Assembly (NCBI GenBank): GCA_903893565.1
Contig: CAITMU010000108.1
Coordinates: 24,415-88,414, forward strand
DNA length: 64,000 nucleotides
Source: an uncultured beta proteobacterium
GTDB taxonomy: Bacteria; Pseudomonadota; Gammaproteobacteria; Burkholderiales; SG8-41
Reading direction: 5' to 3'
Shown: positions 21,148-60,879 of the stretch, piece after piece
Layout: each line of letters starts with the position of its first letter
Position numbering within the stretch: the first letter of the stretch is position 1
Made by a program: the position numbers and the translations under genes
The notes under the pieces: model-generated
The model's database searches: none
Seen by the model: only the letters and a program-made list of their open reading frames with translations
Told to the model about the DNA's origin: nothing

Positions 21148-21996
21148 CTACAAACGAATACCAATCTCTTTTTCAAAGACCCTTAAGCCTTGTGGCAAAT
21201 CCTCGCCCGTGTATCGCAAACAATCTTCATGAACCCCCCGATGATATAGGTCTTTGCCTGTTTTCCGGCAATGCTCAAGCCAATGCATATCTTTGTTATT
21301 TTCATTAGCAAATTCTGTATGCGCCATCGTTTCTATTTTTGCGCGAATTTCTGACTGCGTCATAAAGTAGGAAAAATGCCAACCCGCTTGCTTCAATGAC
21401 CACTTGGCAAAAGCCGTATTGACTCGAATCTCATCCAGCGGGTATTTACCTAAGCCTTGGTCACTGATCACAAAGGGATGGTCCCAGGTAAAACGCTTGA
21501 TCCAATCCGAAGAGTAATAGAAAAAATGCATCTGCAACTTATGCGGCTCTGCTAAATAATCATAAAACTTATAAAGATTCTCAACCATTTCTCGTCGCGG
21601 GATCTCGTCCACATCGCACACGAATAGTAGCCAAGGGGCCAACGTTAATTTTTCACGTAGATACGTTTCCGCAAAATTTCTCTGATAACTTTCTCTGAAC
21701 CAGACTTGCGGTTTTTCTACAAAATGACGTTGCGCCAACACCGACAATTGTTGGTCATCAGGGGCAGGAAATTGATCAATAATTAGACGGGTTATTTTTT
21801 TATTGTATTTTTCAAATAAGGCAGCGTTTTTTTCCAAATGTAATTCTTGTTTTTTTACCCCCACATGGGTCTCAAGTGCTTCAATAATAATAAATTCATC
21901 AACGACATCCCAAAGATATTGCAATCTAAAAAGGGCTATTGATTCCCCATTGTAAGGAAAACAATCGTAGATACGCATGCTGTATGCCTTGTTCAA
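21148..21996 (-). CDS. glycosyltransferase family 17-like (beta-1,4-mannosyl-glycoprotein GlcNAc-transferase-like)
   Basis: MRIYDCFPYNGE...L..RL..L.DVVDEFIIIE and GWHFSYF match the GT17 pattern as I recall it. The true start may be the ATG at 21978. Confidence 0.7.
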   Translation of the reverse strand: MNKAYSMRIYDCFPYNGESIALFRLQYLWDVVDEFIIIEALETHVGVKKQELHLEKNAALFEKYNKKITRLIIDQFPAPDDQQLSVLAQRHFVEKPQVWFRESYQRNFAETYLREKLTLAPWLLFVCDVDEIPRREMVENLYKFYDYLAEPHKLQMHFFYYSSDWIKRFTWDHPFVISDQGLGKYPLDEIRVNTAFAKWSLKQAGWHFSYFMTQSEIRAKIETMAHTEFANENNKDMHWLEHCRKTGKDLYHRGVHEDCLRYTGEDLPQGLRVFEKEIGIRL

Positions 21997-32715: not shown

Positions 32716-33507
32716 TCATCGGCCTTTATACACGGGCTTTCTTTTTTCTACAAAAGCCAATGCACTTTCTCGAAAGTCTTCTGACAAATGCAATGTTTTA
32801 GGGCGAATGGAATAGCTTTTAACATCCAACTGCTCCAACTGAGCACGACGAGCCTCTACAATCGCTCTGACTGCCAAGGGAGGGTTTTTGAGAATCTCTG
32901 TGGCGAGCAGTTCGGCTTGCAACAGATGCTCACCGGGCTCCGTTAATCGATTTAAAAGATGATGGTGTTGCGCCTCTTCGGCCAACCATACCCGACCCGT
33001 TAAACAAACATCGTCCGCAAAAATACCTGCGCCTCGCTCACTTAACATCATCCAAAATGGGATGCCATCAATGCCACGCGCTACCTCAGTGACTTGAAAC
33101 TTAGTGCCTTTACTGGCGACCGTTAAGTCACAATAAAGCGCAATTCTTAATCCTACGCCATAAACGTAACCATGCATGGCCGCGATAATGGGTTTAGCCT
33201 GTGGGGGCTTGAAAAAAGGATGGCGAATATTTCCTTCCCGCGCTGAAGGCCCGCCTAATTTTTTCAAGTCTTCTTTGGGACGTAACTGACGCTGCTTTAC
33301 ATCAGCACCGCTACAAAACGCTTTACCGTTACCAGAAATGATTCCCACCATAGCCTCTTCATCATCATAAAACTGATAAAGTGCATCGCACAGTGCCATA
33401 CTCACTTCATCAGAAATAGCATTGAGCTTTTCAGGCCGATTCAGCGTTATATATCCAATTTTTTCTTTGCGTTGATATTCAACTAAAGCCATATTCGATT
33501 CTTTCAA
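32716..33507 (-). CDS. enoyl-CoA hydratase/isomerase (crotonase) family protein
   Basis: 263 aa with ITLNRPEKLNA, FCSGADV and a crotonase-fold pattern. Confidence 0.8.
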   Translation of the reverse strand: MKESNMALVEYQRKEKIGYITLNRPEKLNAISDEVSMALCDALYQFYDDEEAMVGIISGNGKAFCSGADVKQRQLRPKEDLKKLGGPSAREGNIRHPFFKPPQAKPIIAAMHGYVYGVGLRIALYCDLTVASKGTKFQVTEVARGIDGIPFWMMLSERGAGIFADDVCLTGRVWLAEEAQHHHLLNRLTEPGEHLLQAELLATEILKNPPLAVRAIVEARRAQLEQLDVKSYSIRPKTLHLSEDFRESALAFVEKRKPVYKGR

Positions 33508-33666
33508 TGAAAAGATTAATGAAATCTACAAAGTCATCTATCTGGTTATTGGGGGTCGTTCAATTTTTCTAATCCCTCACTTATCGCCAGTTTACCTATT
33601 ATAATCGTGCCAAAGCTCGCTAGCTTACCTTTAAGCCCTAAAATTTTTATTACCCTAAGACTCTTT

Positions 33667-34155
33667 ATGATTATCATGACTAAACGGTGGTCTTTTTTTC
33701 TGGCACTAGTATTTTTCTTACCGATGTCCGGTTGCATCGGCATGCCGCCTACCGATACATTAATCGGACAAGATAGGTCAATTTTAATTGCTCAATGGGG
33801 AGAGCCGCGAAATGAACAAACGCAAGATTTACTCACTCATCTTGAATACCACCGAGGTATCCAAACCTTCATTTTTAGTCTTAATACCAACCAACGAATC
33901 GAATCGTGGGAGCAGGTTTTAGATGAAGCGCATTTCGCAAAAATACACCCTGGCATGAGTACTTTTGAAGTCAGTTGGCTGATTGGTCAGCCTGATCAAA
34001 AAAGTCAGACCGGCTTCACCAATAGCCACATTTGGTCCTACCGGGATCAAAATGCATTGAGTTTTTGTCGATGGTTTGAAATTGAGTTTTCCGCTCTTGG
34101 ACGGGTGAAGTCGAGCGGCTATGATTACTTACCGTATTGTAAGAGCCAATTATAA
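33667..34155 (+). CDS. lipoprotein with SmpA/OmlA (BamE-like) repeats
   Basis: It has a signal peptide and the lipobox LPMSGC. Two BamE-like segments are present (...IAQWGEP..., HPGMSTFEVSWLIGQPD...WSY). I chose the ATG at 33667 over the longest ORF. Confidence 0.6.
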   Translation: MIIMTKRWSFFLALVFFLPMSGCIGMPPTDTLIGQDRSILIAQWGEPRNEQTQDLLTHLEYHRGIQTFIFSLNTNQRIESWEQVLDEAHFAKIHPGMSTFEVSWLIGQPDQKSQTGFTNSHIWSYRDQNALSFCRWFEIEFSALGRVKSSGYDYLPYCKSQL

Positions 34156-35931
34156 TAAAGTGGGTTTATCGGTCTGTGGGGATGCATGGGCCCGGTGCTG
34201 TCGTTGCCCCCCCTCACAAAGCCTACCAATATCTACGGCTACCGTCTCCAGCACTGTACTCCAGTCGCTGCGAGTGGACTGGCGATATAAGGTAAGGCTT
34301 GAATACCAGACACAGTCTGTACGATCCAACAACCATCGCCAATCGGGGACATAAGGCAGCAAGACCCAAGCCTGCAGACCCAAAGCCCCTGCTAAGTGAG
34401 CAACACTGGTATCGACACAGATCAGTAAATCCAGATTCGCCAATAGGGCAGCCGTCTCTGCAAAATCAGCATTAACCAAATCTAGCACGACACATTGGGT
34501 ATGGCGTTTAAGCCATGCCAATTCATCGCTTGATATGTCCTTTTGCAAGCATACCCATTCAACATCGAGATCAAACCAACTCACTAGGTCGGAAAGACGG
34601 ATGCTGCGATTCAAATCATTTTTATGATTTTTATTGCCTCGCCATACAAAACCCAAACGAGGACGTTTTTTTTCACCCAATTGCGCCATCCAATGATTAT
34701 GTTTTAGCGCCTCAATAGCCAAGTATTTTTGGAGGGGCTGGGCCTCAATCTGCATCCTATTTAAAGCAAGAGGCAGACTCATTAAGGGACAATGACAATC
34801 AAAAGCAGGCAATGACTCATACTGTATGACCCATTGATCAACACCCTCCAATGTCCTCATTAACCGTTCCAATTCGCGCGGCACCTCTAAAATCACGCGT
34901 GCACCCAATGCCTTAACAAAGGGGACAAAACGGCAAAACTGAATCGTGTCGCCTAAACCTTGTTCGGCATGAAGCAATATCGTTTGGTTTTTAAGACTAC
35001 TGCGCCCTAACCAAAGGGGCTGCAGAAAATTTCTCTTCGGCGAAGTGAATCCTTCACGCTGCCAACGCCATTCATAGAGTAAAAACCCTGCTTCGTAGTG
35101 ACCTTGTAGCAATTCGAGCAACGATTTATTCCAGTAGCTTTCCGCATATTGCGGATCAATTCTGATGGCTTTATCGTAACTGGACAATGCCCTTTCAAGC
35201 TGCTGCAATTCTTGTAGCAATACGCCGTAATTACTCACGACTTTTGCATCCTCGGGCTTTAGCGCGATGGATCGCTCATAGCCTATCTTGGCCTGAGACC
35301 ATTGAAGTCCTTGCTGCAACGCGATCGCCCGGTCCCCATGGGCCTGAGCATATTCGGGTTGGATCCACAAAGCTTTATCATAACTCGCAATAGCCCCCGC
35401 CAATTGCCCTAACTCCCTTAAAGCGATACCTTGATTAAAGTAGGCCTCTGAGTAGGTAGGGTTAATTGCCAAAGCGTGTTGATAACACACCATAGCCTCG
35501 GGTAGCACGCCTTGGCTTTTTTTGACATTCCCCCAATTATTGTAGGCTTCGGCATAAAGGGGATTATGTTGGGTGGCTAAACGATAACTCGCCTCGGCTT
35601 CATTCCATTGCTTCAAATACTGGTAAGCCAGCGCCAAGTTATAATGGGTTACGGCATGGGTAGCATCAATGTTTAACGCTTTTTTTAATACCGTAATGGC
35701 CAATACATATTGCTGACGTTGACCGAACAAAGTCCCCAATAATTGCAACGCATCAAAATGCCGTGGCTTTTTTTGCAAGAGTTGTTCGTAACAATACTGC
35801 GCACGCTCCCATTCCCCACGTCGATGAAAGGCCAAGGCCTCAGCCAACAATTGCCCCAGATCCTCAGACAGTGGACTCGCGAGCGCCTCACGTCCTTGGG
35901 AGAGAGTTTTATTGCGTGAACGTTTAGACAT
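34150..35931 (-). CDS. TPR-repeat protein fused to a GT9 (heptosyltransferase-like) glycosyltransferase domain
   Basis: 593 aa with about 8 TPR units (residues roughly 20-290). The C-terminal domain carries EQGLGDTIQFCRF..., CVDTSVAHLAGALG, typical of GT9-like TPR fusions. Confidence 0.75.
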   Translation of the reverse strand: MSKRSRNKTLSQGREALASPLSEDLGQLLAEALAFHRRGEWERAQYCYEQLLQKKPRHFDALQLLGTLFGQRQQYVLAITVLKKALNIDATHAVTHYNLALAYQYLKQWNEAEASYRLATQHNPLYAEAYNNWGNVKKSQGVLPEAMVCYQHALAINPTYSEAYFNQGIALRELGQLAGAIASYDKALWIQPEYAQAHGDRAIALQQGLQWSQAKIGYERSIALKPEDAKVVSNYGVLLQELQQLERALSSYDKAIRIDPQYAESYWNKSLLELLQGHYEAGFLLYEWRWQREGFTSPKRNFLQPLWLGRSSLKNQTILLHAEQGLGDTIQFCRFVPFVKALGARVILEVPRELERLMRTLEGVDQWVIQYESLPAFDCHCPLMSLPLALNRMQIEAQPLQKYLAIEALKHNHWMAQLGEKKRPRLGFVWRGNKNHKNDLNRSIRLSDLVSWFDLDVEWVCLQKDISSDELAWLKRHTQCVVLDLVNADFAETAALLANLDLLICVDTSVAHLAGALGLQAWVLLPYVPDWRWLLDRTDCVWYSSLTLYRQSTRSDWSTVLETVAVDIGRLCEGGQRQHRAHASPQTDKPTLL

Positions 35932-36163
35932 GCAGATTAATACTACCTTTTACAAAACAAGCAGGACTACATCCAGATACCTTTTTATAGTATTCCCGCA
36001 ATGCGTATTGCCCCCACACCCCTTCCTTTTTTATCCTCTCTGTTGCACTTAAAGACAGGGACTTTAATCGGGATATCCACGAACGCTTAAACCGATGGCC
36101 TACTGTTTTCAGTATTTTTACCGCGTTTGAGTTCACTTCTTTGACGAGATTGATCTTCTTCAT
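35924..36163 (-). CDS. hypothetical small basic protein
   Basis: 79-aa ORF with an ATG start 17 nt after the aminotransferase stop. Its stop overlaps the TPR-GT9 ATG (ATGTCTAA). It is very Lys/Arg-rich, and I recognised no family. Confidence 0.3.
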   Translation of the reverse strand: MKKINLVKEVNSNAVKILKTVGHRFKRSWISRLKSLSLSATERIKKEGVWGQYALREYYKKVSGCSPACFVKGSINLHV

Positions 36164-36180
36164 CCCATACGATTATAGGA

Positions 36181-37497
36181 TTATTTTTCAGCCATAGCCT
36201 CACGAATCGACTGCGATGCGATGTCCTCCAACCAAGCCAAATCCACCGTTTGGTGGGCCTCGCAAAGAAACCAAGGCTCGCGCGAATCGGGTTCAAGCAT
36301 GACGCCTTTTCCAATCATTTTCCAGGCAAAATTTCGATACAAGGTACTGTTGGTTAAGCGCCACTCACGATATGTCATAGGCACTTGTGGTGTAAAGTGA
36401 ATACCAAACATGGCCGGTGGTCCTGCAAAACAATGTTCAAGCCCTACGCTCGTAAAAGCACGGCTTAGCAAGGCTTGTATCTTGCCTCCCATTTGATCCA
36501 CCGTCTGCAACGCATTCGTTTCAGCCAGAATTTTTAACGTTGCGCTAGCGGCACTTAACGCAATCATATTGGCTGTATATGTGCCCCCATGAACCACGCC
36601 ACCGGGATGAGACCCCACCACATCCATCACATCGGCCCGACCCCCAAAGGCAGCCACCGGATAGCCATTACCCATGGCTTTAGCATAAGTAGTTAAGTCC
36701 GCATTCACCCCATACAAAGCCTGCGCTCCACCTTTGGCCACTCTAAAGCCTGTCTTCACTTCATCCATTAAAAGCAAAGTGCCGTAGTCATTACATAATT
36801 GCCTCAGCCGTTTAAGCCACTCTGGACTTGCCGAGATACTGCCACAATTACCCACTATCGACTCAAGAACGACACAGGCTAGTTTTTCCTTGTTTTTTAA
36901 AAAAACCGATTCCAGTGCCTCTGCGTCATTTAAAGAAATGATATCCACCCGCTCACGGCTTTGCTTAGGAATGCCACCCCCAAAGGGAATTACCAACGGA
37001 TCTTTTTGACTCAGTGGGTCCCAACTCTCCACGTCTGACTTCCACATCATTTCATCATATAAGCCATGAAATCCACCTTCCACAATCACAATCCTATCGC
37101 GCCGGGTATAGCCTCTGGCCGTACGCACTGCCCCCATGACAGCCTCTGTACCCGAGTTAGCAAAGCGCAATTTTTCAATATTCGGACACAATTGCTTAAT
37201 TTGCTTGACGACGTGCGTATCCAAAGCGGTGGAAAATCCACTTAAGGTTCCCCGTTGAGTGATTTGCTCTACCACCGCCTGATCAACGCGCGCATCCCGA
37301 TAACCTAAAATGATCGGTCCGTAGCCCAAACGAAAATCAACAAAACGACGGCCATCACAATCGATTAATTCACAACCCTGGGCCTGCTCAATAAAAACCG
37401 TTTGCTGTTGACCCCAATATCGATAATTTTCAGCCACCCCTTGTGGCATATGCTTTAAAGCTTCCTGCATTAATGCTGGCTGTTTACTAGAATTCAT
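36181..37497 (-). CDS. class-III (GSA-aminomutase-like) PLP-dependent aminotransferase
   Basis: 438 aa with F.NSGTEA...A.R.AR..T.R, the DEV.TGFR motif and YAKA.GNG.P. Confidence 0.85.
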   Translation of the reverse strand: MNSSKQPALMQEALKHMPQGVAENYRYWGQQQTVFIEQAQGCELIDCDGRRFVDFRLGYGPIILGYRDARVDQAVVEQITQRGTLSGFSTALDTHVVKQIKQLCPNIEKLRFANSGTEAVMGAVRTARGYTRRDRIVIVEGGFHGLYDEMMWKSDVESWDPLSQKDPLVIPFGGGIPKQSRERVDIISLNDAEALESVFLKNKEKLACVVLESIVGNCGSISASPEWLKRLRQLCNDYGTLLLMDEVKTGFRVAKGGAQALYGVNADLTTYAKAMGNGYPVAAFGGRADVMDVVGSHPGGVVHGGTYTANMIALSAASATLKILAETNALQTVDQMGGKIQALLSRAFTSVGLEHCFAGPPAMFGIHFTPQVPMTYREWRLTNSTLYRNFAWKMIGKGVMLEPDSREPWFLCEAHQTVDLAWLEDIASQSIREAMAEK

Positions 37498-38480
37498 GAA
37501 AGATTACCTGAAGAAGAATTCGTTTGAGCCATTGGGCTGTCTGTATTGCCTCGTGAGTCAGCCTGCGGCCTGAGAAATAATCCTACTCGTTCTTCTAGTA
37601 GTCGCACCACGTTTAATTCTCCGGCATTGTCACCGTAGGTTAGCCTCGCTTGCTCGAATAGCGACTGAGCAACCCCCCCCATCTTCAAATCGTAACCCTG
37701 TCGTTTGGCAATATCATTAATCAGGTTCAAATCTTTACAACACAGCGCCAAAGAAAAACTCGGGTCATAATGACCAGCAAAAATGGACGGCACATCATGC
37801 TCGGCGACCCAGCTATTACCGGCGCTGGACTTGATGGCCTCCCAAACAGTGGGTAAATCAATACCCGCTTTTGCCCCCAGCATTAAACCCTCTCCAATGG
37901 CTGCTGCACTGACAAACCACAACAAATTTGTCAGCAATTTTATTGTAGCGCCATTGCCAACAGGCCCTACATGGAAAATTTTCTCACCAATTACCTTAAA
38001 TAAGGGTAGGTGTTTTTCATAACAAGTTTTTTCACCTCCCACAAAAATTGACAATTTTCCTAAAGCAGCAAAATCAACCGCATTCGTCACTGGAGCTTCT
38101 AAAAAAAACAGTCCTCGCGACTCACAGTTCGTTTGCATCTCTTGTGCCAATTCGACTGAGCTCGTCGACGAGTCAATCACACTCGCCCCTGGTTTCAAGT
38201 GCGCTAACAGTCCGTTCTCACTTAACATCAACTCTCGCACCTGAGCTGGCCCTGGCAACGAAGTCATGATGACATCAGCCTGACTAGCAACACTATTTAG
38301 TGGATCTGCCCACTTTGCCCCGAGGGGAAGCAAATTAGTCGCCTTTTCTGGCACTCGGTCAAATACCGTTAAAGGATAACCCGCCCTCAATAGGTTAGCC
38401 GCCATGGGGTTACCCATATTGCCTACCCCAATAAATAATACATGAGGTTTATTCACTGAACCGTTATTCGATTGCATCAT
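37494..38480 (-). CDS. NAD(P)-dependent beta-hydroxyacid dehydrogenase (3-hydroxyisobutyrate dehydrogenase-like)
   Basis: VLFIGVGNMGNPMA Rossmann motif and a HIBADH-like core. An Asn/Ser-rich C-terminal tail of about 25 aa follows. There is a 4-nt ATGA overlap with the aminotransferase gene. Confidence 0.8.
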   Translation of the reverse strand: MMQSNNGSVNKPHVLFIGVGNMGNPMAANLLRAGYPLTVFDRVPEKATNLLPLGAKWADPLNSVASQADVIMTSLPGPAQVRELMLSENGLLAHLKPGASVIDSSTSSVELAQEMQTNCESRGLFFLEAPVTNAVDFAALGKLSIFVGGEKTCYEKHLPLFKVIGEKIFHVGPVGNGATIKLLTNLLWFVSAAAIGEGLMLGAKAGIDLPTVWEAIKSSAGNSWVAEHDVPSIFAGHYDPSFSLALCCKDLNLINDIAKRQGYDLKMGGVAQSLFEQARLTYGDNAGELNVVRLLEERVGLFLRPQADSRGNTDSPMAQTNSSSGNLS

Positions 38481-38502
38481 TTAATAGGCTGGTAATTAAT
38501 CT

Positions 38503-39210
38503 TTACATTTTCTTAAATTCAAGAAAAGTTCCATTGCCGACACTATTGGGCTGAAAATGAAATCCATATCGGGACATCAATTGCTTCGCTTGCGAGAAAC
38601 TATACGTGCGGTAATGAATAGTTTGTGCCATCAACGTTTCTGAGGGTGAATGTAAATAATAATGCTTTGTAAAGCCTACTTCATTGGGTTCAATTCTTTG
38701 CGAATAGATCAAACCAGTAGAAATGGGTTTTTCATAATCAAAATGAGGCCCTTGTATTCCCAGTAACAATCTGCCTTCCCTACACACATGCGCCGCCAAG
38801 CGGTCAAACCCCGACTCATTATCTTCCCCTTTTGCTAAGTGACTGACTAAAAGGGGCTCTTGATCGCCATCAATGACAAAGTACCATACCCCACCGTAAG
38901 AAAAAACACATTCAAACTGGTTTTGTAAAGAAAAATCGGTAATATTTTGAAGGCTCAAATTAACCTGAGAAAAGCTTTCTAAACGTTTTTGGGCAATATT
39001 GAGCATTGCTTGCGTTAAGTCCATGCCAGTGAGTGAGATAGCCGGATTTCGTTTGGCAATCTCTTCCAGAATGAGACCAGTACCGCAGCCAATTTCCAAT
39101 ATATTGGCACTCGGTTGATTCAAAATGCCATCCACTATTTTTTTGTAGTCATAATAGCCCGAGGTCATTATGACGTCATAGTATGTGGACATGCTCGTAT
39201 AGTCGCCCAT
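38503..39210 (-). CDS. class I SAM-dependent methyltransferase
   Basis: 235 aa with motif I (ILEIGCGTGL) and a post-I acidic residue (GMDL). The gene is AT-rich by eye. Confidence 0.8.
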   Translation of the reverse strand: MGDYTSMSTYYDVIMTSGYYDYKKIVDGILNQPSANILEIGCGTGLILEEIAKRNPAISLTGMDLTQAMLNIAQKRLESFSQVNLSLQNITDFSLQNQFECVFSYGGVWYFVIDGDQEPLLVSHLAKGEDNESGFDRLAAHVCREGRLLLGIQGPHFDYEKPISTGLIYSQRIEPNEVGFTKHYYLHSPSETLMAQTIHYRTYSFSQAKQLMSRYGFHFQPNSVGNGTFLEFKKM

Positions 39211-39840
39211 GAAAACCTTCTTTTTTAGGTTCGTTTATTAGACCTTCATCTTGTAAGGCAAGGGCATCCTCTGAACACGTCGCCGAGAAATTTGGATCGT
39301 TAATCAAGACTCCCCTCTCCCCCCCACATACTACTGACAGTCGGCCAAGGTGATCGTTATAACGACCACCTGAGCTCAGTAAAGGATATTTAATGTTTAA
39401 TTCTTCTAACTATAAGGGATTTATAAACATTTTATACCATCCCTTTGTACTCAGCCAATCCACCCGTGGCGAATATAGACAGTTAGGGGGAGTCACGGTT
39501 TTGTTGTCGTTTCCCCAAATAAGATAGTTTTTTGAATCCCACATCCACTCTTGAGACTCTGCGCATGACATTTGGCCTTGAAATTAAGGGCCTTATCTAT
39601 CGAAAAAATACGATACTTTGTGCTTCATCGAATCGTCAGCGATACGTTGGACTGTTCTCTCAGCGTCTGATCAATCTTTGAAAGACAAACGCATGAAGTC
39701 AATATCAGTATCTTCACTAGGGTCATTGTAGCGGGTGCTATTTCCCATCGATGGCCGTGTCTTTTTAGAACAACGGGGTTGGGTTATTTCAACTTGCTCG
39801 GACACTACCCTGAAAAACACCGTGACCCATGGTATTTATA

Positions 39841-40509
39841 TTAAAAACGATAACCAAAACCAATGTGGAAGGTGGATGGATTGGAGGGGTTAAATAATTT
39901 ATTAGTCGGTAGGCTCGCATCGACAGCATTTTTCGAATAACTATATTCTGCAAAACCATAGACGTCGTTTTTATAAAAATGCTTGTAACCTAAACCATAA
40001 AATCTTGAGCCACTTTTTGCACCCGTCCAAAATGAATTCGCCTCTAACGAACTGGCTGTATTATTCGATCTCGTATACCCAAGCTTTAAATAAGCCATAC
40101 CCGATGCATTCATCGTATAACTCGGGGTCAAGAGCATTTGGTAATGAGCGTTATTCTGTTCATGGGTGTAGGCATTAGCAGTACAGGAAAGACAGTGGGG
40201 ATAAGCCGTGGTTGCGCCTAAATGATAATTCACCTGAAATTGGGTAAACCATTTGTCTGCCCATTCCAACCCATAAGACAAAGCCCAATTCATCGAGGGG
40301 CGCGCAGGGGTTGAATTCACCATCGAGAACTGTGTGGACTGCGTGCTAATGACCGGGGAGGACAAATGAGTCAATTCAAGACCACTTTTGTATAACGCGA
40401 GGCTTGCCTCTGTCGCCTTTAAACCATTCCATAGGCCAAACCCCTCTTGCGCGCTGACTTGAGCAACTAAAAGGAACCCTGCGAGCAAAAGGAAAGGATA
40501 TTTTTTCAC
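39841..40509 (-). CDS. small outer-membrane beta-barrel protein
   Basis: It has a signal peptide (MKKYPFLLLAGFLLVAQVSAQE), alternating aromatic/hydrophilic strands and a C-terminal ...IGFGYRF ending in Phe. Confidence 0.7.
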   Translation of the reverse strand: MKKYPFLLLAGFLLVAQVSAQEGFGLWNGLKATEASLALYKSGLELTHLSSPVISTQSTQFSMVNSTPARPSMNWALSYGLEWADKWFTQFQVNYHLGATTAYPHCLSCTANAYTHEQNNAHYQMLLTPSYTMNASGMAYLKLGYTRSNNTASSLEANSFWTGAKSGSRFYGLGYKHFYKNDVYGFAEYSYSKNAVDASLPTNKLFNPSNPSTFHIGFGYRF

Positions 40510-40852
40510 GGAAAAATTTAAAGAATTAGAGTTAGTTCGGGTATTTTACGTAAAATTACTTAATAAATACCCTAGTAGTCCGCAAAATGGGCTATTTTGA
40601 TCAGGATTGTGCAAAAAACAACACTATCGTTCAGTTAATCGGCAAGCAATACCATTGATCCCCAAGCTGAACCCTTCTGCTTTTGAATATGCCATCGCAT
40701 TTTATTACTTTTTATGGCGGCGAAAACCCTATCCATCTTTTAAAGATCGCCCCCCGATAGACCCTAGGCAAGTGGTTGAAGAGCCTCCGAGATAACACGA
40801 CTCTCCGACCGCAGACCTCATCAGTTCGGTCCCCAAACCCAATGATACGAGA

Positions 40853-41698
40853 TTAAGTGTTCTTGGCTTTAGGTAAGCTCACTACAGTATCTGCTAGATT
40901 TTTAGGTAAAAAACGATTTAAAAAACGGATGAAATCGGGGTACGAAGCCATACAAAGGCCGCGCTCGGCTAGTAATTGAAAATCACTTGGTTCTGGCAAC
41001 CGATAATAACGGTTCAATTGAGGATCCTGCCGATTTAATGTCAGGCTTTGGCCTGCTTCCAATTGAGCCAAAAGCTCGATTAAACTTTGCAAACCTAATT
41101 GATATAAATCACTGATGTGGGAAAAAACACTTCGTTGCGGCTCTGCCAATCGATAGGACACCGAATATATTGGCCCTGTATCTATACCCTCATCCACTTT
41201 ATGCAAAGTGCAACCCAAGCGAGACTCCCCATTTAAAAGAGCACGCATAGGAGCATACAAACCGCCATAGCCCGGCAAGGCCCCAGGATGAATATTAAAT
41301 ATTCCCCACCTGGGTATCTGCAAATGCTCGGATTTGAAAATAAGGCTAAATCGTGCGGAAACAATCACATCTGGGCCCCATTGACGTAATGCTTGGGTCG
41401 GCTGAGGATCCTTAAACGAATTTAAGATCGTCGCTTCATATTCGTACTTCAACTCCAGGGCCTTGAAAGTTAACCATTCACCACTTAACTGGGTAGCATC
41501 CAGTAACGGAAAAATAGTTTGCAACGGCAAGTCTCGCTCAAGAAACTTTTCTTCTGCCAAAGGGGCGACCATATTTTCTGCAGGCCTCGTCTTGTCTGAA
41601 AGCCACACTCGAACCTCATGGCCCTTCAATCGAGGCATAATCCAATTTAGAATAAAAGCACCGAATAAATCATTTTTTGTGCAAAAAAGAATTTTCAT
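40853..41698 (-). CDS. formyltransferase-family protein (Fmt/ArnA N-terminal-domain-like)
   Basis: 281 aa. The catalytic-core pattern is NIHPGALPGYGG...GCTLHKVDEGIDTGPI. There is no obvious Fmt C-terminal tRNA-binding domain. Confidence 0.72.
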   Translation of the reverse strand: MKILFCTKNDLFGAFILNWIMPRLKGHEVRVWLSDKTRPAENMVAPLAEEKFLERDLPLQTIFPLLDATQLSGEWLTFKALELKYEYEATILNSFKDPQPTQALRQWGPDVIVSARFSLIFKSEHLQIPRWGIFNIHPGALPGYGGLYAPMRALLNGESRLGCTLHKVDEGIDTGPIYSVSYRLAEPQRSVFSHISDLYQLGLQSLIELLAQLEAGQSLTLNRQDPQLNRYYRLPEPSDFQLLAERGLCMASYPDFIRFLNRFLPKNLADTVVSLPKAKNT

Positions 41699-42069: not shown

Positions 42070-42711
42070 TTATCCCTCAACAACCGAGCTCGTTTTTTCT
42101 CCCATACGCAATATATCAATAACATTGCGAGCCCCCAATTTTTCCATGATATGCGCTTTATGCACTTCAACCGTTCTATGACTGATACCGAGTTGTTCGC
42201 CTATTTCTTTGGCATGCAAGCCACGGGTCAAATACCCCACTACCTCTCGCTCCCTAGGAGACAAGAGCAAAAATTGTGACTCCCACTTTCGCTTCTCCGT
42301 CATTGATTTAATACGTTCTCGTTCTTTTTTAAAAGCATTTTCAACCGCATTGATCAATTGATTAAAATCAAAAGGCTTTTCCAAAAAATCCAAAGCACTG
42401 TTACGAAACGCCTGGCATGCAGAATTCACGTCCCCATGTCCTGTAATGATCACCACTGGCAATAGACAATCTCGCTTGATTAATTCATTTTGCAATTGCA
42501 AACCGCTGATGCCTGGCATTCGGATATCAGCCACGACACAGCCCACCCAACTATCCTCAGCGGCATTTAAAAAATCCTCCGCACTGGCAAATTGACGCAA
42601 CTGGTAACCACGCAAACTTAACGCAAGTGATATAGAGTCCCGAATCGCCGCATCGTCATCGACCACAAATACCGTTAGTAAATTAACCGCCTCATCTAGA
42701 ACTATGTTCAT
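42070..42711 (-). CDS. response regulator, FixJ/NarL (LuxR HTH) family
   Basis: The receiver domain has VVDDD...D.RMPG. The C-terminal LuxR-type HTH reads LSPREREV...G...KEIG..LGIS..TVE.H. Confidence 0.88.
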   Translation of the reverse strand: MNIVLDEAVNLLTVFVVDDDAAIRDSISLALSLRGYQLRQFASAEDFLNAAEDSWVGCVVADIRMPGISGLQLQNELIKRDCLLPVVIITGHGDVNSACQAFRNSALDFLEKPFDFNQLINAVENAFKKERERIKSMTEKRKWESQFLLLSPREREVVGYLTRGLHAKEIGEQLGISHRTVEVHKAHIMEKLGARNVIDILRMGEKTSSVVEG

Positions 42712-44399
42712 ATTTTCTTTCCTTCAAATAAACTCTGTGATTCATTGGCCAGCACATCACCAATGGGGAGTGTAAAACAAATATTACCCATCTGACCTGG
42801 GTTGGCCCATATTTTCCCACCATGCGCCGAAATAATAGCCCGACTGATGGCCAATCCCATTCCCATGCCATTAGATTTCGTGGATACAAATGAGTCAAAC
42901 ATTCGTTCCACATCTTCAGAACGAATCCCACTCCCATTGTCGGCGACCTCGATTCGTACTTCATTCGGCGAATCGGAATTGATTAAAACCGAGACCCATC
43001 CATCATCCTTATTTAATTGAGCAACACTTTCTATCGCATTTATTAATAGATTACGAAGCACGACCTCCATTTGAATGAGATCGACTAAGACAGCGGTTGT
43101 AGTGGGTAATTTTTTGAATTGCAAATCAACACCCGCCTCAGTCGCCTTAGATTTAACCGATAGGATCACTTGCATGACAAAATCGTTTATTTCAATCGCT
43201 TCCAAATAAATATCGCCTTGACGAAAAAAATCTCTTAATCGACGCACTACCGCCGCCGTTCTTTTTGTTTCATCCATTATTTTTTGCATAATACTATTTA
43301 GCTGCAATCGATCGACCTCGGGCATGGACGCAACCTGCTGCCCTGCTGAGGCGTAACCGGACAATGCGGTCAGGGGTTGATTAATCTCATGGGTGATCGC
43401 AGCAGATAATTCACCGGCTGCGGCTAACTTCAATGAATCTCGGAAATTATTGGTTGCTCGTCTTTGCTCATCAATGGATACCCCTAGCAATAACCCCGTT
43501 AACACCAGCGTCATCAACAGTAACTGAAGCTCAAACATCGATAAGGGTTGATAAGTGGCTATATGAAAAATGACAAAAATACCACATTGGATCAGCATTA
43601 ACGCGCTCACAGCACCTCTCAAACCAAAACACGTTGCCGTCCAAATCAAGGGCAAAAACAAGACGTAGAAATTGCGAATTCGGTCATCTTCTTCACTTAA
43701 AAAAATCCACCACAAACAAACAAAAATCGATATGACCTGTAACCAAAAGAGCCTTGAAAAAAATAATTGCTTGAATTCTCGGCATCGTTTATCACTGTGC
43801 AGCATCAATAAAAAGGGGGCTGCGACTAAAACGCCAACACTGTAGCCAATAAAAAAACGACGTACAGCGAAAAAATAGCGATCCATCGGGCCAATATTAT
43901 AAGTCACCAAAGTAAAAACGTAGGCTATCCCCATAAAAAGCATGCCGACTAAAGAAACGCCTATTAAGCGGGTGATGTTTTGACGCGTCTCAAGCTCAAT
44001 ATCAATGCGATATCGTCCGCAGAGCAATGAAGACATCAAACAAAATCCCGCCGCCAAAACGCCGCCATTAATAAGAATCAAACCCAAGGGCCGCACTTCA
44101 GTAGGCAAGGCAAACTCACCCCAAATCGCTGCCAAAAAAATGACGGGCCAGTAACGAATCCCCCCTAACATCAGTATGACCAAAGCAATCGCCGCCTCAG
44201 GATTAAACGGTGTAATACCAAAGCGAGACGGATTAACGTAGGTTATCCAGTCAAGAAATATATATAAAAGAAAGAAAAACACTACCCCCGACGGCCCGAG
44301 CTGCTTTTCCGGGCGAAGAGGAATGAAACGACGTAAAAACTTTAATGTGGGATTCAGATTCATGACCAAATTTTCCCATAAGTGGCCGTATTGATCCAT
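42708..44399 (-). CDS. sensor histidine kinase with MASE1-like membrane domain
   Basis: 563 aa. About 8 N-terminal TM segments show a MASE1-like pattern. The H-box is ITHEINQPLTAL, and N/G boxes (LLINAIES, DNGSGI, GMGMGL) are present. It overlaps the regulator gene by 4 nt. Confidence 0.85.
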   Translation of the reverse strand: MDQYGHLWENLVMNLNPTLKFLRRFIPLRPEKQLGPSGVVFFFLLYIFLDWITYVNPSRFGITPFNPEAAIALVILMLGGIRYWPVIFLAAIWGEFALPTEVRPLGLILINGGVLAAGFCLMSSLLCGRYRIDIELETRQNITRLIGVSLVGMLFMGIAYVFTLVTYNIGPMDRYFFAVRRFFIGYSVGVLVAAPFLLMLHSDKRCREFKQLFFSRLFWLQVISIFVCLWWIFLSEEDDRIRNFYVLFLPLIWTATCFGLRGAVSALMLIQCGIFVIFHIATYQPLSMFELQLLLMTLVLTGLLLGVSIDEQRRATNNFRDSLKLAAAGELSAAITHEINQPLTALSGYASAGQQVASMPEVDRLQLNSIMQKIMDETKRTAAVVRRLRDFFRQGDIYLEAIEINDFVMQVILSVKSKATEAGVDLQFKKLPTTTAVLVDLIQMEVVLRNLLINAIESVAQLNKDDGWVSVLINSDSPNEVRIEVADNGSGIRSEDVERMFDSFVSTKSNGMGMGLAISRAIISAHGGKIWANPGQMGNICFTLPIGDVLANESQSLFEGKKI

Positions 44400-50910: not shown

Positions 50911-53030
50911 AAAGTCTGCCCCTTCTTGTAGAGCTCGTCACTGAAGAATTGCCCCCCAAAGCACTTCAAAAACTCAGCCAAGCTTTTGCTCACCATCTCA
51001 CGCAAATGCTCACCGCTCAAGGCTTAGTGGCTCAAGACAGCGTGAGTGAGATATTTGCGACGCCTCGGCGTTTAGCCGTTCGCCTTTCAAAAGTATTCGA
51101 GCAGGCGCCGGACCGTTTGGTCGATGAACGTTTATTACCGGAAAAAGTCGGGCTCGATAGCTCGGGGCACGCAACCCCTGCACTACTAAAAAAATTAGCG
51201 GGCCTGGGGTTAGATGATAGTGTTATCGGATCGCTTAAAAAAATCCATGACGGCAAGCTCACCCTGCTGTATTTAACACAAACCGTGGTCGGACAAACCT
51301 TGCCCGTCGGGCTTCTCAGCGCTTTGGATAAGACACTTTTAAGTCTGCCAATTCCCAAGCTCATGAGCTATCAATTGGACCACAGTACTGAAACCATTAA
51401 ATTTGTTCGCCCGGCTCATGGCCTTATCGCTTTACATGGAAGCCATGTCGTAGCGGTACGTGCGTTAGGTTTGGATTCAACTCGTCGCACCTTTGGTCAT
51501 CGTTTTTTGGGTGAAACCGAATTTTTAATCGATGACGCCATGAGCTATGAGACTCAGCTTCACGACCAAGGCAAAGTGATTGCTTCGTTTGAAAAACGAC
51601 GGGAACTCATTCAATCTTTATTGACCCAACAAGCGCAACAACTTAACTGCCAATTGGGCGATTACCAAACACTGCTTGACGAGGTTTGTGCTCTAGTGGA
51701 GTGGCCTGCCGTTTATGTGGCGAGCTTTGATACTGAATTTTTAAAAATTCCTCAAGAGTGCCTGATACTCACCATGCGCACGAACCAAAAATATTTTCCC
51801 TTATTCGATGCGCAGGGTAAATTAATTGAAAAGTTTTTGTTAGTCAGCAATATGAGCGTCAAAGAACCCAAACCCATCATTGAAGGCAATCAAAAAGTAG
51901 TGCGTCCCCGGTTAGCCGATGCACGGTTTTTCTACGAGCAAGATCGAAAGCACTCCCTCGCCTCCCGTGTCCCGCGCTTAGCCCAAGTGGTCTATCACAA
52001 CCAACTCGGCACACAACTGGAGCGGGTCGAGCGGCTCAAGAAACTAGCCGGACTTATCGCCGCTCTTCTGGGAACTGATGTGAACCAGAGCGAACGGGCC
52101 GCTTGGCTTGCCAAGGCGGATCTTTTAACCGGTATGGTTGGAGAGTTTCCAGAGCTTCAAGGTCTCATGGGGCGCTACTACGCGCAACATGACAAGGAGC
52201 CTGACGTGGTATGTGAGGCGATAGCTGAACACTATCTACCCCGATTTGCAGGGGATGTTTTGCCCTCCAGTTCTGTTGCCTGTGCCGTGGCTCTAGCAGA
52301 CAAGCTCGACACACTCGTAGGAATTTTCGGTACGGGCCATCTGCCTAGTGGAGATAAAGACCCGTTTGCTTTGCGCCGACTAGCGCTGGGAATCGTGCGC
52401 ATTCTGGTCGAACGTGAACTGCCTGTCTCGATTCTAAGTCTCTTGGATCTGGCTCATAAAAATTTCCCGCCAAATATTTTACTCTCCCATCATCCTCAAT
52501 TACATCAAATGTCTAATGTCGAGGCGGTTCATGTTTTTATCATTGAACGAGCCAAGAGCTATCTGCGCGAACGTGATTATGGAGCACTCGAAGTGGAATC
52601 GGTCATGGACTTATCCCCCCTACCCTTAGAATATAAGGGGCGTTTAAATGCGACTCGGGAATTTCTTGCCCTACCCGAAGCGGCAGGGCTTGCACAGGCT
52701 GACAAACGAATTCGACATATTCTCAGCAAATCATCGGCGAGCACCGCAGCGCATCGGGTTGAGGAATCCGATTTGATTGAAAGCGCAGAAAAACAACTGC
52801 TCACAATAACCCGTGAACTACAAATTAAAGTCAATGCCCTGCTAGAAGTAGGTCAGTTTACCCAGGCCCTGCGTCTAACGGCTCAATTACATCATCCAGT
52901 CACCACTTTTTTTGATCAAGTGCTGGTCAATGCAAAGGACCCACAACTTCGTCTTCATCGCTTTTCGCTTTTACAGGAAGTGCTGGAACTGACCAACCGG
53001 GTTACCAACCTCTCCAAACTCGCTCTATGA
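50907..53030 (+). CDS. glyS: glycine--tRNA ligase beta subunit
   Basis: 707 aa opening with LLVEL.TEELPPK. It overlaps glyQ by 4 nt. Confidence 0.93.
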
Positions 53031-53560
53031 AACTCGTGATTCTTGATCGCGATGGGGTTATTAACCACGACAGCACCGCCTACATCAAGTCACCGGACGA
53101 ATGGCGTCCCATCGCGGGCAGTCTGGATGCAATTGCTCGGTTAAATCAATCGGGCTTTCATGTGGCACTTGCCACCAATCAGGCCGGATTAGGACGAGGT
53201 CTTTTTGATATGGGCACATTAAACGCCATTCATACCAAAATGCATCTACTGCTCTCACAAGTCGGTGGGCACATCGATGCTATCTTCTTTTGTCCTCACC
53301 GGGCTGATGATCACTGCGACTGTAGGAAGCCTAAAACGGGGCTTCTTGAAGATATTGCACAACGCTTTAATACTTCACTTAAAAATGTACCCCTGATTGG
53401 CGATAGTCTGCGAGACCTTCAAGCAGCAGAAGCGGCGGGTGCCACCCCGATACTCGTATTAACCGGCAATGGCAAAAAAACACAGCTTGACCCCCTCATG
53501 CCTCGCAATACCCGCATTTACCCCGATTTAGCTGCTGCCGTCAGCGCGCTTGTGGAGTAG
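53027..53560 (+). CDS. gmhB: D-glycero-beta-D-manno-heptose-1,7-bisphosphate 7-phosphatase
   Basis: HAD motif ILDRDGVIN, the Zn-binding C..H....C.CRKP and GDS.RD. Confidence 0.88.
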   Translation: MKLVILDRDGVINHDSTAYIKSPDEWRPIAGSLDAIARLNQSGFHVALATNQAGLGRGLFDMGTLNAIHTKMHLLLSQVGGHIDAIFFCPHRADDHCDCRKPKTGLLEDIAQRFNTSLKNVPLIGDSLRDLQAAEAAGATPILVLTGNGKKTQLDPLMPRNTRIYPDLAAAVSALVE

Positions 53561-58923: not shown

Positions 58924-59610
58924 CTAAATGTTTTTCAAGCCGGCACAATACAACATGGCTTCATGCTCTCGAAACCAATGGGACGCATACTCGCAGTCCT
59001 TAAAAGCTGAAAAATAAGGTCCCCCCAAAGTAAAATGCACAAGGCTGGCTTGAGCGCTCGGTGGGTTATAACCCACCAGATGATTCCACGCCGAGGGTAA
59101 TTCTCCTATCAAGCCCTCATCGACAAGCCAATGAAACTGATGCAAGGCAAGACCAGAGGCATCGTTCACATACTGCGGAGTCAATTGCTGGCAAAGGGCG
59201 TTATTAAAAAGCATCACACTAGACCAGTTTTTTTTCGCATACTGGCTCTGGGGCTCACCTAAAAATTTGTGAGTTTCCACTGGCACATGATGGTGTTTGA
59301 CCACCATAACCGCATACCGCTCATCTCTGAGGGCAAAGAGCCGCTCAACGTCATCTAACATCAGCATGTCGCAATCCATAAAAAGCGACCAACCCTGATA
59401 GCCCGACAAATAAGGCGTTAGAAACCGTGAAAATGAAAAATCCGTACTTTGCAACGGATGCCGCTCTCGGGTTAACACCCCTGACAATTGACTTAACTTA
59501 AGGGCAGCAATTGCCACTGGCTTCGAGGCTCTGCTCTGAATGCTATGGGCCAGCACATTAAAAGCAATCGTTTCTCGCGGATCATACCCAATAAAAATAG
59601 CGTTCATCAA
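58924..59610 (-). CDS. GT-A-fold (GT8-like) nucleotide-sugar glycosyltransferase
   Basis: 228 aa. The N-terminus IFIGYD..E..A..V...S and a DxD-type FMDCDML match a family of small GT8-related transferases. The specificity is unknown. Confidence 0.55.
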   Translation of the reverse strand: MMNAIFIGYDPRETIAFNVLAHSIQSRASKPVAIAALKLSQLSGVLTRERHPLQSTDFSFSRFLTPYLSGYQGWSLFMDCDMLMLDDVERLFALRDERYAVMVVKHHHVPVETHKFLGEPQSQYAKKNWSSVMLFNNALCQQLTPQYVNDASGLALHQFHWLVDEGLIGELPSAWNHLVGYNPPSAQASLVHFTLGGPYFSAFKDCEYASHWFREHEAMLYCAGLKNI

Positions 59611-59749: not shown

Positions 59750-60613
59750 TTATTGCCTCCTGAACGCTCTTAATGGGCCTTTGAGGCGATTGCCTTGCAA
59801 GGACTCTATTGATAGATCGTCGCGCTTCCACAGACCACACGCCAGATGCATTAATCCGATCTTATCGTGAGGTAAATTCGGCTCCACGTAAATACCCCGA
59901 CTCTCATCCCAGAGAGGCTGAGCATGGCAAGCCATCCAATTATGTCTTGCCGGTAAAAAATGAGGCTGGATATTTTGCGTATAAACGGTCATATTTAATG
60001 CGGTTTGCTCTAAAAAATTAGAGCAATATTTTTTAATCGCCCCAGACATGGTCGTTTGCCACTGCTTCCACAAAGGGTGCTCACGCATCAATGCAAAAGC
60101 ACCGCAATTAATCAAAGGAAAATGAATCAATCGATTGGCCACTTCAGGCCCATAGTATCGACTCAGATTGTCATGATAGATTTCGCGGCTGGCATTTTTT
60201 AAGAAAACATTGGCGTAAGTTCTCTCCAATTCCAAGCACACCGCCAGTTGACCTTGACGCGCGGCCCTGACAAAGTCATAGAGCATGTCCAAGTCCTGAA
60301 CCCAGATATCGGCATCAAGCCATAAGATCAAATCCGCTTGAGTAATATACTGCGGTAAAAAGGGTCGCGCAGACATCGCCTTAAACCACTCTGGCACCCC
60401 TTTCCAGGCCGATATATCGACATCCCACCCCGGTTGAATCAAGTGATGGCCCGTTTTTAATAAAGACTCTCTTTGCTCGACCGATAGACCCACATCGAGG
60501 ATATGAATACTCACCGTTTCTGACCACTGCCCCACACCCTCAATAGAGCTTAAAAGGGCTTGCAGGCTAGCGTAATAGCCCTCATTGGAGGCCGTCGCAA
60601 TTGCAATTCGCAT
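59750..60613 (-). CDS. GT8-like glycosyltransferase
   Basis: It opens MRIAIATASNEGYYASLQALLSS and carries the DxD motif LWLDADIWV. I prefer the ATG at 60613 to the TTG at 60622. Confidence 0.62.
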   Translation of the reverse strand: MRIAIATASNEGYYASLQALLSSIEGVGQWSETVSIHILDVGLSVEQRESLLKTGHHLIQPGWDVDISAWKGVPEWFKAMSARPFLPQYITQADLILWLDADIWVQDLDMLYDFVRAARQGQLAVCLELERTYANVFLKNASREIYHDNLSRYYGPEVANRLIHFPLINCGAFALMREHPLWKQWQTTMSGAIKKYCSNFLEQTALNMTVYTQNIQPHFLPARHNWMACHAQPLWDESRGIYVEPNLPHDKIGLMHLACGLWKRDDLSIESLQGNRLKGPLRAFRRQ

Positions 60614-60879
60614 AAAACCCAACCATTTCCTCTAAATCCATCCATTAACCGTATGCCACTCTTCCCACAACAAAATACAGGCTCTAACCGAGGTGCACTG
60701 TAGCATAGCCTTAAAAGGGGCGTAAACCACCGTGAACGGCAACAAGGGGGTCCCCCTCTTATGAAATGCCCATGCTTGAGGCCGTTGCTCGAAGGCAGGC
60801 TTGCGGCTCTGATGAAAGCGCCCCATGAAGCCTTCAATACCCCCATAAGCTAAGCTCACGCAGTAAGACTATAATCTTC

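Follow-up and report, generated by a model that had tools for sequence, protein, structure and literature searches.

The DNA stretch analysed here (the window) comprises 64,000 nucleotides (nt) of contig CAITMU010000108.1 (assembly GCA_903893565.1, positions 24,415 to 88,414) and is core chromosome of the metagenome-assembled genome (MAG) of an uncultured freshwater betaproteobacterium. A region flanked by miaB-phoH-ybeY on one side and by a ubiH-like gene, dsbC, mltA, apaG, rpe, gph and trpE on the other holds seven open reading frames (ORFs) that share the same orientation on the minus strand. An earlier interpretation made from the letters alone (the sequence-only reading) had assigned all seven to one system that would build a modified amino compound or amino sugar and attach it to an acceptor. 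The real unit is a three-gene operon composed of a methyltransferase, a dehydrogenase and an aminotransferase, which forms a self-contained module across genomic contexts. The genes of this trio lie in the window as follows.

38503-39210, minus strand: methyltransferase dependent on S-adenosylmethionine (SAM), 235 amino acids (aa), first gene of the trio
37494-38480, minus strand: β-hydroxyacid dehydrogenase of the 3-hydroxyisobutyrate dehydrogenase (HIBADH) family, 328 aa, second gene of the trio
36181-37497, minus strand: class-III aminotransferase, 438 aa, third gene of the trio

The coordinates and common orientation of the seven ORFs were borne out, and so were the spacings first claimed: 22 nt between methyltransferase and dehydrogenase, a 4-nt overlap of dehydrogenase and aminotransferase, 17 nt from there to a small ORF of 79 aa, and an 8-nt overlap of that ORF with a gene encoding a tetratricopeptide repeat (TPR) and glycosyltransferase fusion (TPR-GT9). 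Profile searches (Pfam, NCBIfam) agreed with the original family calls, that of an outer-membrane β-barrel being plausible and weak. The whole island is kept in a strain variant (L119) at about 98% identity, with individual genes at 97.6-98.8%.

Evidence for the trio comes from its distribution. In a scan that took one genome for each species, 175 genomes had the methyltransferase. We analysed the 80 best loci together with several metagenome contigs, and neighbouring genes were compared over 84 loci. Every sufficiently long locus among the best 80 carries the methyltransferase, dehydrogenase and aminotransferase genes in this same order, at 56-78% identity, and almost all of these loci belong to freshwater Burkholderiales (Limnohabitans, Comamonadaceae and Oxalobacteraceae). 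The trio alone, with nothing else of the window, occurs in three further contexts (a betaproteobacterial MAG, Sulfuritalea and an abundant Burkholderiaceae population), where the methyltransferases are 57-60% identical to that of the window. Clustering of all neighbouring ORFs revealed no other family in more than 17 of the 84 loci, and among these neighbours we found neither a conserved small precursor-like ORF flanking the trio nor a recurrent family of accessory proteins.

Gene fusions tie the three enzymes further. The dehydrogenase and the aminotransferase are fused in 16 of 76 loci, and the thousands of aminotransferase homologues that occur in Betaproteobacteria at 72-77% identity include many dehydrogenase-aminotransferase fusions of 740-759 aa. 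A protein of 585 aa (P0309), one of the few representatives of the narrow methyltransferase family, joins the methyltransferase to the dehydrogenase; its dehydrogenase half is 49% identical to that of the window and retains a family-specific TNA loop described below, and its contig measures only 2.3 kb. Because the three genes are co-conserved in fixed order and are joined by fusions, we assign them to one pathway. For these three enzymes the original impression that the genes "read like a pathway" therefore holds. We found no orthology of the trio to a known primary-metabolic pathway and no described pathway that matches it. The operon is described nowhere in the literature searched on the combination of the three families, on TPR together with GT9, and on a route through serine dehydrogenase and diaminopropionate. 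In a plasmid collection the sole methyltransferase homologue was a Streptomyces gene (35% identity) without an adjacent dehydrogenase or aminotransferase.

The sequence 5' of the trio was also described. In loci of the Limnohabitans type (L012, L015, L019, L023 and L025-L029) phaA-phaB precede the trio, with a terminator behind them. At about 120 nt 5' of the methyltransferase, these loci share a promoter-like motif (ACCCGTCA ... TTTGnTAaAGT) and a small TGGCA...TGCC hairpin, both placed directly ahead of the ribosome-binding site. In the window, the 630 nt located 5' of the methyltransferase (39211-39840) contain no ORF of at least 60 aa on either strand and no Rfam match, and are near-neutral at 93.7% identity to the strain variant; the sole promoter-like match placed to drive the trio (39458-39429) falls inside this gap. 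An Rfam scan of this region and of the spacers returned nothing at E<=1 except one chance match, the intergenic regions of the window showed no conservation against other trio loci, and a search for intrinsic terminators that would delimit transcription units gave none that was convincing.

The methyltransferase matches Methyltransf_25 (51 bits) and has orthologues of 56-64% identity in the 84 loci. Its family is narrow: a search of 1.84 billion representatives at E<=1e-30 yielded 25 clusters. An AlphaFold2 (AF2) model with a mean predicted local distance difference test (pLDDT) of 94.3 has a class-I SAM fold, and its Foldseek neighbours include TylM1, CypM, CalS10, KedS8, DesVI, CcbJ and NmbA, all of which we take to be N-methylases of primary or secondary amines. 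The match to TylM1 has an E-value of 1.8e-16 and a template modeling (TM) score of 0.66-0.70, and the match to CypM a TM score of 0.76. This N-methyltransferase-like fold supports the prediction that the protein is an amine N-methyltransferase. A distant relative of 721 aa (P0357, 34% identity) is fused to an AMP-binding adenylation domain, a hint that members of the methyltransferase family act on carboxylic acids.

The aminotransferase belongs to Aminotran_3 (217 bits), and its pyridoxal phosphate (PLP)-lysine motif YAKAMGNGYPVAAFGG is conserved over 76 loci. The best curated model is GntE (NF041362), an enzyme that we assume converts an aldehyde to a primary amine, at 418.4 bits with a cutoff of 525 that is not reached. 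The HemL models follow, again under their cutoffs (TIGR00713, 340.5 bits against 527.3; NF000818, 358.4 bits against 398). The protein is thus akin to glutamate-1-semialdehyde (GSA)-aminomutase rather than to DegT, as had been proposed. Its closest solved structures are of HemL type (2e7u, 241 bits), and the solved structures related to it beyond HemL include transaminases of secondary metabolism; 4zm3 (its deposited name is "Aminotransferase") and ForI are among the entries listed. Differences from the strain variant are distributed over the three codon positions as 1/1/14, which indicates strong purifying selection. The same holds for the dehydrogenase (3/1/13).

The dehydrogenase contains NAD_binding_2 (150.9 bits, cutoff 21) and NAD_binding_11 (101 bits, cutoff 30) and falls under every NCBIfam equivalog cutoff. 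Its best relatives in the PDB, at 160-164 bits, are tartronate semialdehyde reductase (1vpd) and 3obb/3q3c, which are deposited as probable 3-hydroxyisobutyrate dehydrogenase and presumably represent the L-serine dehydrogenase PA0743 of Pseudomonas aeruginosa. We take the motif GxxGxGxxxKxxxN, with its catalytic lysine and asparagine, and a C-terminal KDL to define HIBADH enzymes. Both have intact counterparts here, a GxxxKxxxN stretch (GNGATIKLLTNLLWF) and CCKDL, which are at least 95% conserved over the 76 loci. The carboxylate-binding substrate loop, conserved to the same degree, reads LEAPvTNA and not APVSGG, the replacement of SGG by TNA being present in 76 of 76 sequences. Judged by these residues, the family is a distinct HIBADH subfamily.

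We consider it fairly probable that the trio makes a small N-methylated amine, either an amino acid or a diamine, by oxidation, transamination and N-methylation. In the first step, the dehydrogenase would act on a small hydroxy acid or hydroxy-amino acid and oxidise its β-hydroxyl. The result would be a labile aldehyde or β-keto acid, and decarboxylation may follow. The aminotransferase would then turn the carbonyl into a primary amine, with fusion to the dehydrogenase channeling the intermediate; carbonyl intermediates of this kind are often unstable, which would explain the dehydrogenase-aminotransferase fusions. Finally, the methyltransferase would N-methylate the new amine to give the proposed product. 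We infer the direction of the pathway, the order of its steps and the nature of its substrate and product. Candidate substrates are 3-hydroxypropionate, 3-hydroxyisobutyrate, glycerate, serine, threonine and homoserine. The pha or crotonase genes that lie near the trio in some lineages give at best a weak hint.

Several observations weigh against this proposal. Some structural neighbours of the methyltransferase are C-methyltransferases, and the methyltransferase is the first gene of the trio, not the last. The TNA loop differs from the SGG of all characterised HIBADH enzymes, so a "β-hydroxy acid" substrate is an extrapolation. The dehydrogenase and the aminotransferase lie below all equivalog cutoffs, and no substrate, product or characterised orthologue of the trio was identified. 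The direction could be catabolic, leading from an amine through an aldehyde to a hydroxy acid. Finally, a TPR-GT9-like gene lies no more than 5.5 kb downstream of the trio in 6 of 41 loci and occurs nowhere in the remaining 927 kb of flanks, and the glycosyltransferase may be tied closer to the trio than we propose.

A more specific form of the proposal, which we regard as very improbable, would start from a free β-hydroxy-amino acid and yield a vicinal diamine that is N-methylated, by a route not previously recognised. L-serine, for example, would yield 2-aminomalonate semialdehyde, 2,3-diaminopropionate and then 3-N-methyl-2,3-diaminopropionate (BMAA), and L-threonine would yield aminoacetone and then an N-methylated 1,2-diaminopropane. 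The dehydrogenase is about as close to 3obb/3q3c as to any structure, which fits this form, and GSA-aminomutase chemistry passes from an α-amino aldehyde via a vicinal diamine. The dehydrogenase-aminotransferase fusions would here channel a very unstable intermediate, and the modeled methyltransferase resembles an amine N-methylase. The genes of BMAA biosynthesis are not known, and methylation of 2,3-diaminopropionate is a standing hypothesis (PMC9414260).

The reverse direction deserves attention as an alternative to biosynthesis. A catabolic or detoxifying trio would convert an ω-amino acid or amine to a semialdehyde and then to a hydroxy acid (for example, β-alanine to 3-hydroxypropionate, or γ-aminobutyrate to 4-hydroxybutyrate), and the methyltransferase would esterify or otherwise mark the product. 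Tartronate semialdehyde reductase and sulfolactaldehyde reductase are indeed among the dehydrogenase matches, the HIBADH family also includes succinic semialdehyde reductases, and class-III aminotransferases are reversible, which counts for this alternative. Among NCBIfam models the methyltransferase scores best, though weakly, with the carboxyl methyltransferase BioC (45 bits); its closest structural relatives, however, are mostly amine N-methyltransferases, and the best model of the aminotransferase, GntE, is one that we assume to be amine-forming. Several trio contexts lie near genes of C3/C4 acyl-CoA metabolism, either phaA/phaB or a crotonase (32716-33507 in the window), but a terminator and a separate promoter-like motif part phaA/phaB from the trio, and its conserved surroundings include none of the transporters or regulators usual in catabolic operons. 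Overall, we judge catabolism unlikely.

Another alternative concerns the gene that follows the trio in the window. The features involved are the following.

34150-35931, minus strand: TPR-GT9 fusion, 593 aa
35924-36163, minus strand: ORF of 79 aa, probably not a gene
35932-36180, minus strand: spacer of 249 nt between aminotransferase and TPR-GT9, which includes the 79-aa ORF minus its last 8 nt

The 79-aa ORF is called in no public annotation of the contig and has no homologue in the 84 related loci. The stretch is 94.4% identical to the strain variant at the nucleotide level, compared with 97.6-98.8% in the flanking genes. The ORF stays open there, with 8 nonsynonymous and 3 synonymous codon changes and differences of 3/5/5 by codon position, a pattern that points to a probably non-coding sequence. 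Both a real gene and a precursor of a ribosomally synthesised and post-translationally modified peptide (RiPP) were rejected as readings of this ORF, which is unconstrained, lacks homologues and ends in Val. Since it is probably non-coding, the spacing between aminotransferase and TPR-GT9 is 249 nt and not tight. The sequence-only reading had described the last five genes as tightly coupled; this description fits the methyltransferase, dehydrogenase and aminotransferase, and fails for TPR-GT9, which stands behind the spacer once the small ORF is discounted. Searches of the spacer for promoter-like and terminator-like signals and for Rfam families gave no match, and its fold is unremarkable, so co-transcription is possible, and TPR-GT9 may be transcribed together with the trio.

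The TPR-GT9 protein consists of about eight TPRs (residues ~28-283) and a GT-B glycosyltransferase domain (~285-575). It matches PF01075 (Glyco_transf_9) at 24.6 bits, barely over the cutoff of 22, and no PDB entry matches the sequence of its last 310 residues. An AF2 model of this domain based on 30 homologues (pLDDT 84.8) was closest to the GT9 structure 3tov, WaaF (1psw), TibC (4rap) and WaaC (2h1h), with TM scores of 0.5-0.57. The domain carries GLGD near its start and DTSVAHLAGALG near its end, which we take to be motifs of GT9. With PF01075, a GT-B fold closest to GT9 and these motifs, the protein falls in this family. It does not reach the cutoff of the heptosyltransferase I model TIGR02193 (16.3 bits against 185.3). 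No signal peptide was found, which makes the protein cytoplasmic. More than 7900 proteins from many phyla are about 50% identical to its glycosyltransferase domain; no characterised member was found in this family, and the three close or named relatives that were inspected all lie in unrelated neighbourhoods.

TPR-GT9-like genes recur downstream of the trio on the same strand, at a distance of 1.7-4.1 kb, in 6 of the 41 loci that extend 5 kb or more beyond the aminotransferase. Five of the six (L050, L057, L071, L072 and L084) belong to one lineage, in which the TPR-GT proteins are 53-67% identical to one another and the genes for formate-tetrahydrofolate ligase (FTHFS) and a MAPEG protein, both on the opposite strand, stand between the fused dehydrogenase-aminotransferase and TPR-GT9, about 3-5 kb downstream of the methyltransferase. 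In the sixth locus an oppositely oriented DUF218 gene intervenes between the trio and TPR-GT9. The TPR-GT proteins of the six loci are only 27-40% identical to that of the window, below the approximately 50% that it shares with unlinked members, and their positions must therefore be independent juxtapositions. Three such juxtapositions suggest a link between TPR-GT9 and the trio but fall short of proof, as the majority of trio loci lack the gene. The occurrence of FTHFS near the trio in one lineage and of a formyltransferase near the trio in the window may be coincidence.

These data bear on a four-gene interpretation in which the TPR array recognises a protein or peptide target, the GT9 domain glycosylates it, and the trio tailors the target or makes the attached group; in one variant, a C-terminal Ser or Thr would be turned into a methylated amine, as in daptides. 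TPR-GT9 follows the trio behind a spacer without promoter- or terminator-like signal, non-orthologous TPR-GT9 genes occur downstream in two arrangements elsewhere, a C-terminal Ser or Thr is itself a β-hydroxy acid, daptides use the same three activities, and the methyltransferase has CypM, a dimethylase of peptide N-termini, among its best structural matches. Against this, 35 of the 41 loci carry no TPR-GT9, opposite-strand genes intervene where it does occur outside the window, its closest relatives reside in unrelated contexts, and neither a conserved precursor-like ORF nor a recurrent accessory-protein family accompanies the trio. We hold this interpretation to be doubtful. TPR-GT9, which the sequence-only reading had made part of the system, probably glycosylates proteins in the cytoplasm and has at best a loose connection to the trio, and biosynthesis of a small N-methylated amine by the trio alone is the explanation that we prefer.

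Other glycosyltransferases and related genes are found in the window. A gmhB gene for heptose 1,7-bisphosphate phosphatase (53027-53560, plus strand; 239.7 bits, cutoff 178) follows glyQ-glyS, and its presence implies that the organism makes ADP-heptose, the usual donor of GT9 enzymes. A second TPR-glycosyltransferase of 836 aa (60880-63390, plus strand) combines TPRs with a GT41 (OGT-like) domain (294 bits) and is divergent from a GT8-like gene (59750-60622, minus strand) and a 228-aa ORF (58924-59610, minus strand). The genome thus holds several cytoplasmic TPR-glycosyltransferase fusions of different families. A GT17-like glycosyltransferase (21148-21996, minus strand; 57.7 bits) lies in the tryptophan genes between the trpE side and trpG/trpD. 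An ORF whose product looks like a signal-peptide protein or a lipoprotein and has no family match (33607-34155, plus strand) runs convergently towards TPR-GT9 and shares 6 nt with the stop end of that gene; its length in public calls is 137-162 aa.

The remaining genes lie upstream of the trio.

39841-40509, minus strand: outer-membrane β-barrel-like protein, 222 aa
40853-41698, minus strand: stand-alone formyltransferase-family protein, 281 aa
42070-42711, minus strand: FixJ-like regulator (Pfam families), upstream neighbour
42708-44399, minus strand: MASE1 histidine kinase (Pfam families), upstream neighbour

The methyltransferase, the barrel gene, the formyltransferase and the regulator are spaced by 630, 343 and 371 nt, and these gaps are near-neutral, with 92-94% identity to the strain variant. 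The formyltransferase matches Formyl_trans_N (72.5 bits), has a weak ArnA-type match (45.8 bits) and contains NIHPGALP and DEGIDTG, which presumably serve catalysis in an active formyltransferase. About 300 stand-alone homologues of 45-60% identity cover 94-100% of the 281-aa ORF. Public annotation places the start 42 codons further in, which shortens the protein to 239 aa. We consider the long start the likelier one, because the homologues align over nearly all of the longer ORF and the extension is conserved in the strain variant (96.8% identity). A metagenome scan with this protein returned generic formyltransferase domains and one full-length relative (L090), whose neighbours, the one context of a relative that was read, are a 465-aa protein without assignment and a solute-binding protein. 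The barrel protein begins with a signal peptide and ends in Phe (...GYRF), and its match to OMP_b-brl (25.7 bits) lies under the cutoff of 28.7. Compared with its counterpart in the strain variant (L119, 3986-4654), the gene differs at codon positions as 5/5/6, without third-position bias (96.0% aa and 97.6% nt identity). Such a pattern indicates relaxed or diversifying selection, as would be expected of a surface protein. The upstream two-component system was correctly recognised from the start and consists of the MASE1 kinase and the regulator, which scores 198 bits with the FixJ model (cutoff 255). No orthologous kinase-regulator pair was found beside the trio elsewhere, apart from weak generic matches in a few loci.

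Base composition does not unite these genes with the trio. The long ORFs of the window have a mean GC content of 48.3 ± 2.7%. The claim that several genes are AT-richer stands for the methyltransferase (40.5%), the formyltransferase (43.1%) and the barrel gene (43.6%), which together with the regulator and kinase lie 4-8 points under the ORF mean, and not for the dehydrogenase, aminotransferase and TPR-GT9, which are average (46.5-48%). Since the dip spares these three genes, its extent does not coincide with that of the proposed cluster. When composition was used as a guide to horizontal transfer, the methyltransferase alone lay about 3 standard deviations under the mean.

The seven-gene system of the sequence-only reading, with a perhaps N-formylated amino compound or sugar, attachment by TPR-GT9 and an outer-membrane component, is highly unlikely given that only the trio is co-conserved in neighbourhood searches and that the seven-gene set is kept within a single species-level population. 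The co-orientation of all seven ORFs, the intact island in the strain variant and the formate-tetrahydrofolate ligase between trio and TPR-GT9 in another lineage speak for it, as does a logic resembling that of Arn (oxidative decarboxylation, transamination, N-formylation and transfer) together with the ArnA-type match. However, homologues of the formyltransferase and of the barrel protein occur beside the trio in none of the 84 loci, so that these two genes are excluded by the very refuting test that the sequence-only reading had set (separate neighbourhoods without co-conservation). In addition, the formyltransferase relative in L090 has other neighbours, the gaps of 343-630 nt are near-neutral, and TPR-GT9 is cytoplasmic. 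As first noted, the Pfam-annotated genes found within ±10 kb include no nucleotidyltransferase, flippase or polymerase, and likewise no DegT enzyme. We regard the formyltransferase, the barrel protein and the two-component system as neighbours independent of the trio, located where the sequence is slightly richer in AT. Nothing that we found points to an amino sugar, to a glycoconjugate as the product or to a "dedicated outer-membrane component". Membership in O-antigen, capsule, Arn, Kdo8N or aminoglycoside 6'-amination systems was ruled out, as the enzyme families differ and accessory genes are missing; for an O-antigen or capsule locus, neither the Wzx flippase and Wzy polymerase nor an ABC exporter is among the annotated genes of the same interval.

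The trio is a compact and strongly conserved operon of very abundant freshwater bacterioplankton (Limnohabitans, other Comamonadaceae and Oxalobacteraceae). Its product, once identified, would bring a new small nitrogen metabolite into the microbial chemistry of fresh water, for example an osmolyte, a signal, a toxin or a building block. It would also establish a class of substrates that is new for HIBADH-type dehydrogenases and GSA-aminomutase-like transaminases. Fusions in both directions make the trio a well-defined target, and the recurrence of TPR-GT9 beside it offers a concrete context in which to seek the acceptor of this protein.

Each enzyme of the trio has relatives in known systems. 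The dehydrogenase shares fold, cofactor domains, catalytic Lys and Asn and the KDL with HIBADH enzymes such as GarR (1vpd) and 3obb/3q3c, but differs from them in the TNA loop in place of SGG, in its scores of only 160-164 bits and in reaching no equivalog cutoff. The aminotransferase resembles HemL in its closest solved structures and in having the same PLP-lysine motif; it fails the HemL equivalog cutoffs and is always paired with or fused to the dehydrogenase and paired with the methyltransferase, whereas haem synthesis needs neither partner. In guanitoxin biosynthesis, GntF is assumed to N,N-dimethylate the amine made by GntE, a pair of reactions that the proposed transamination and N-methylation would parallel, and GntE is the top curated model for the aminotransferase of the trio (418 bits). 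This score remains under the GntE cutoff, no gnt-like genes were found at the window locus or among the clustered trio neighbours, and the GntF model is not among the 25 listed of 37 methyltransferase matches. Moreover, the guanitoxin aldehyde comes from a retro-aldol step, whereas that of the trio would come from the dehydrogenase.

Daptide tailoring (MpaC with MpaB, MpaD and MpaM) unites the three activities proposed for the trio, in the same chemical order. In daptides, an oxidative decarboxylase, a class-III aminotransferase and a methyltransferase act on a C-terminal Thr (bioRxiv 10.1101/2023.03.08.531785). Their oxidoreductase is an iron-dependent alcohol dehydrogenase (Fe-ADH) or a short-chain dehydrogenase/reductase (SDR), whereas that of the trio is of HIBADH type, and the methyltransferase of the trio matches the daptide methyltransferase model only weakly (28 bits). 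Daptide clusters also require precursor peptides ending in Thr, a DUF-RRE protein (DapB; RRE, RiPP recognition element) and an RRE-peptidase, while the trio stands alone. With its HIBADH-type oxidoreductase, no conserved flanking small ORF and no recurrent accessory-protein family among the neighbours, the locus does not qualify as a daptide (RiPP) cluster.

The TPR-GT9 protein can likewise be set beside known glycosyltransferases. The heptosyltransferases WaaC and WaaF and the protein heptosyltransferase TibC are the best structural matches of its C-terminal domain, which passes PF01075 and has GLGD and DT[SG]xxHLAxAxG; however, identity is 10-14%, TM scores are 0.5-0.57, the heptosyltransferase I model fails, and these enzymes lack the TPR array. 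In Caulobacter, the cytoplasmic flagellin glycosyltransferase FlmG (596 aa) binds its protein acceptor through the TPR domain and transfers the sugar with a GT-B domain, and it is reported only in Caulobacterales (PMC7591256; bioRxiv 10.1101/2023.12.03.569772). Although the 64-kb window contains no flagellin, flagellar or nonulosonic-acid genes, TPR-GT9, compared by architecture and length, resembles FlmG in its N-terminal TPRs, C-terminal GT-B domain, size (593 versus 596 aa) and cytoplasmic location.

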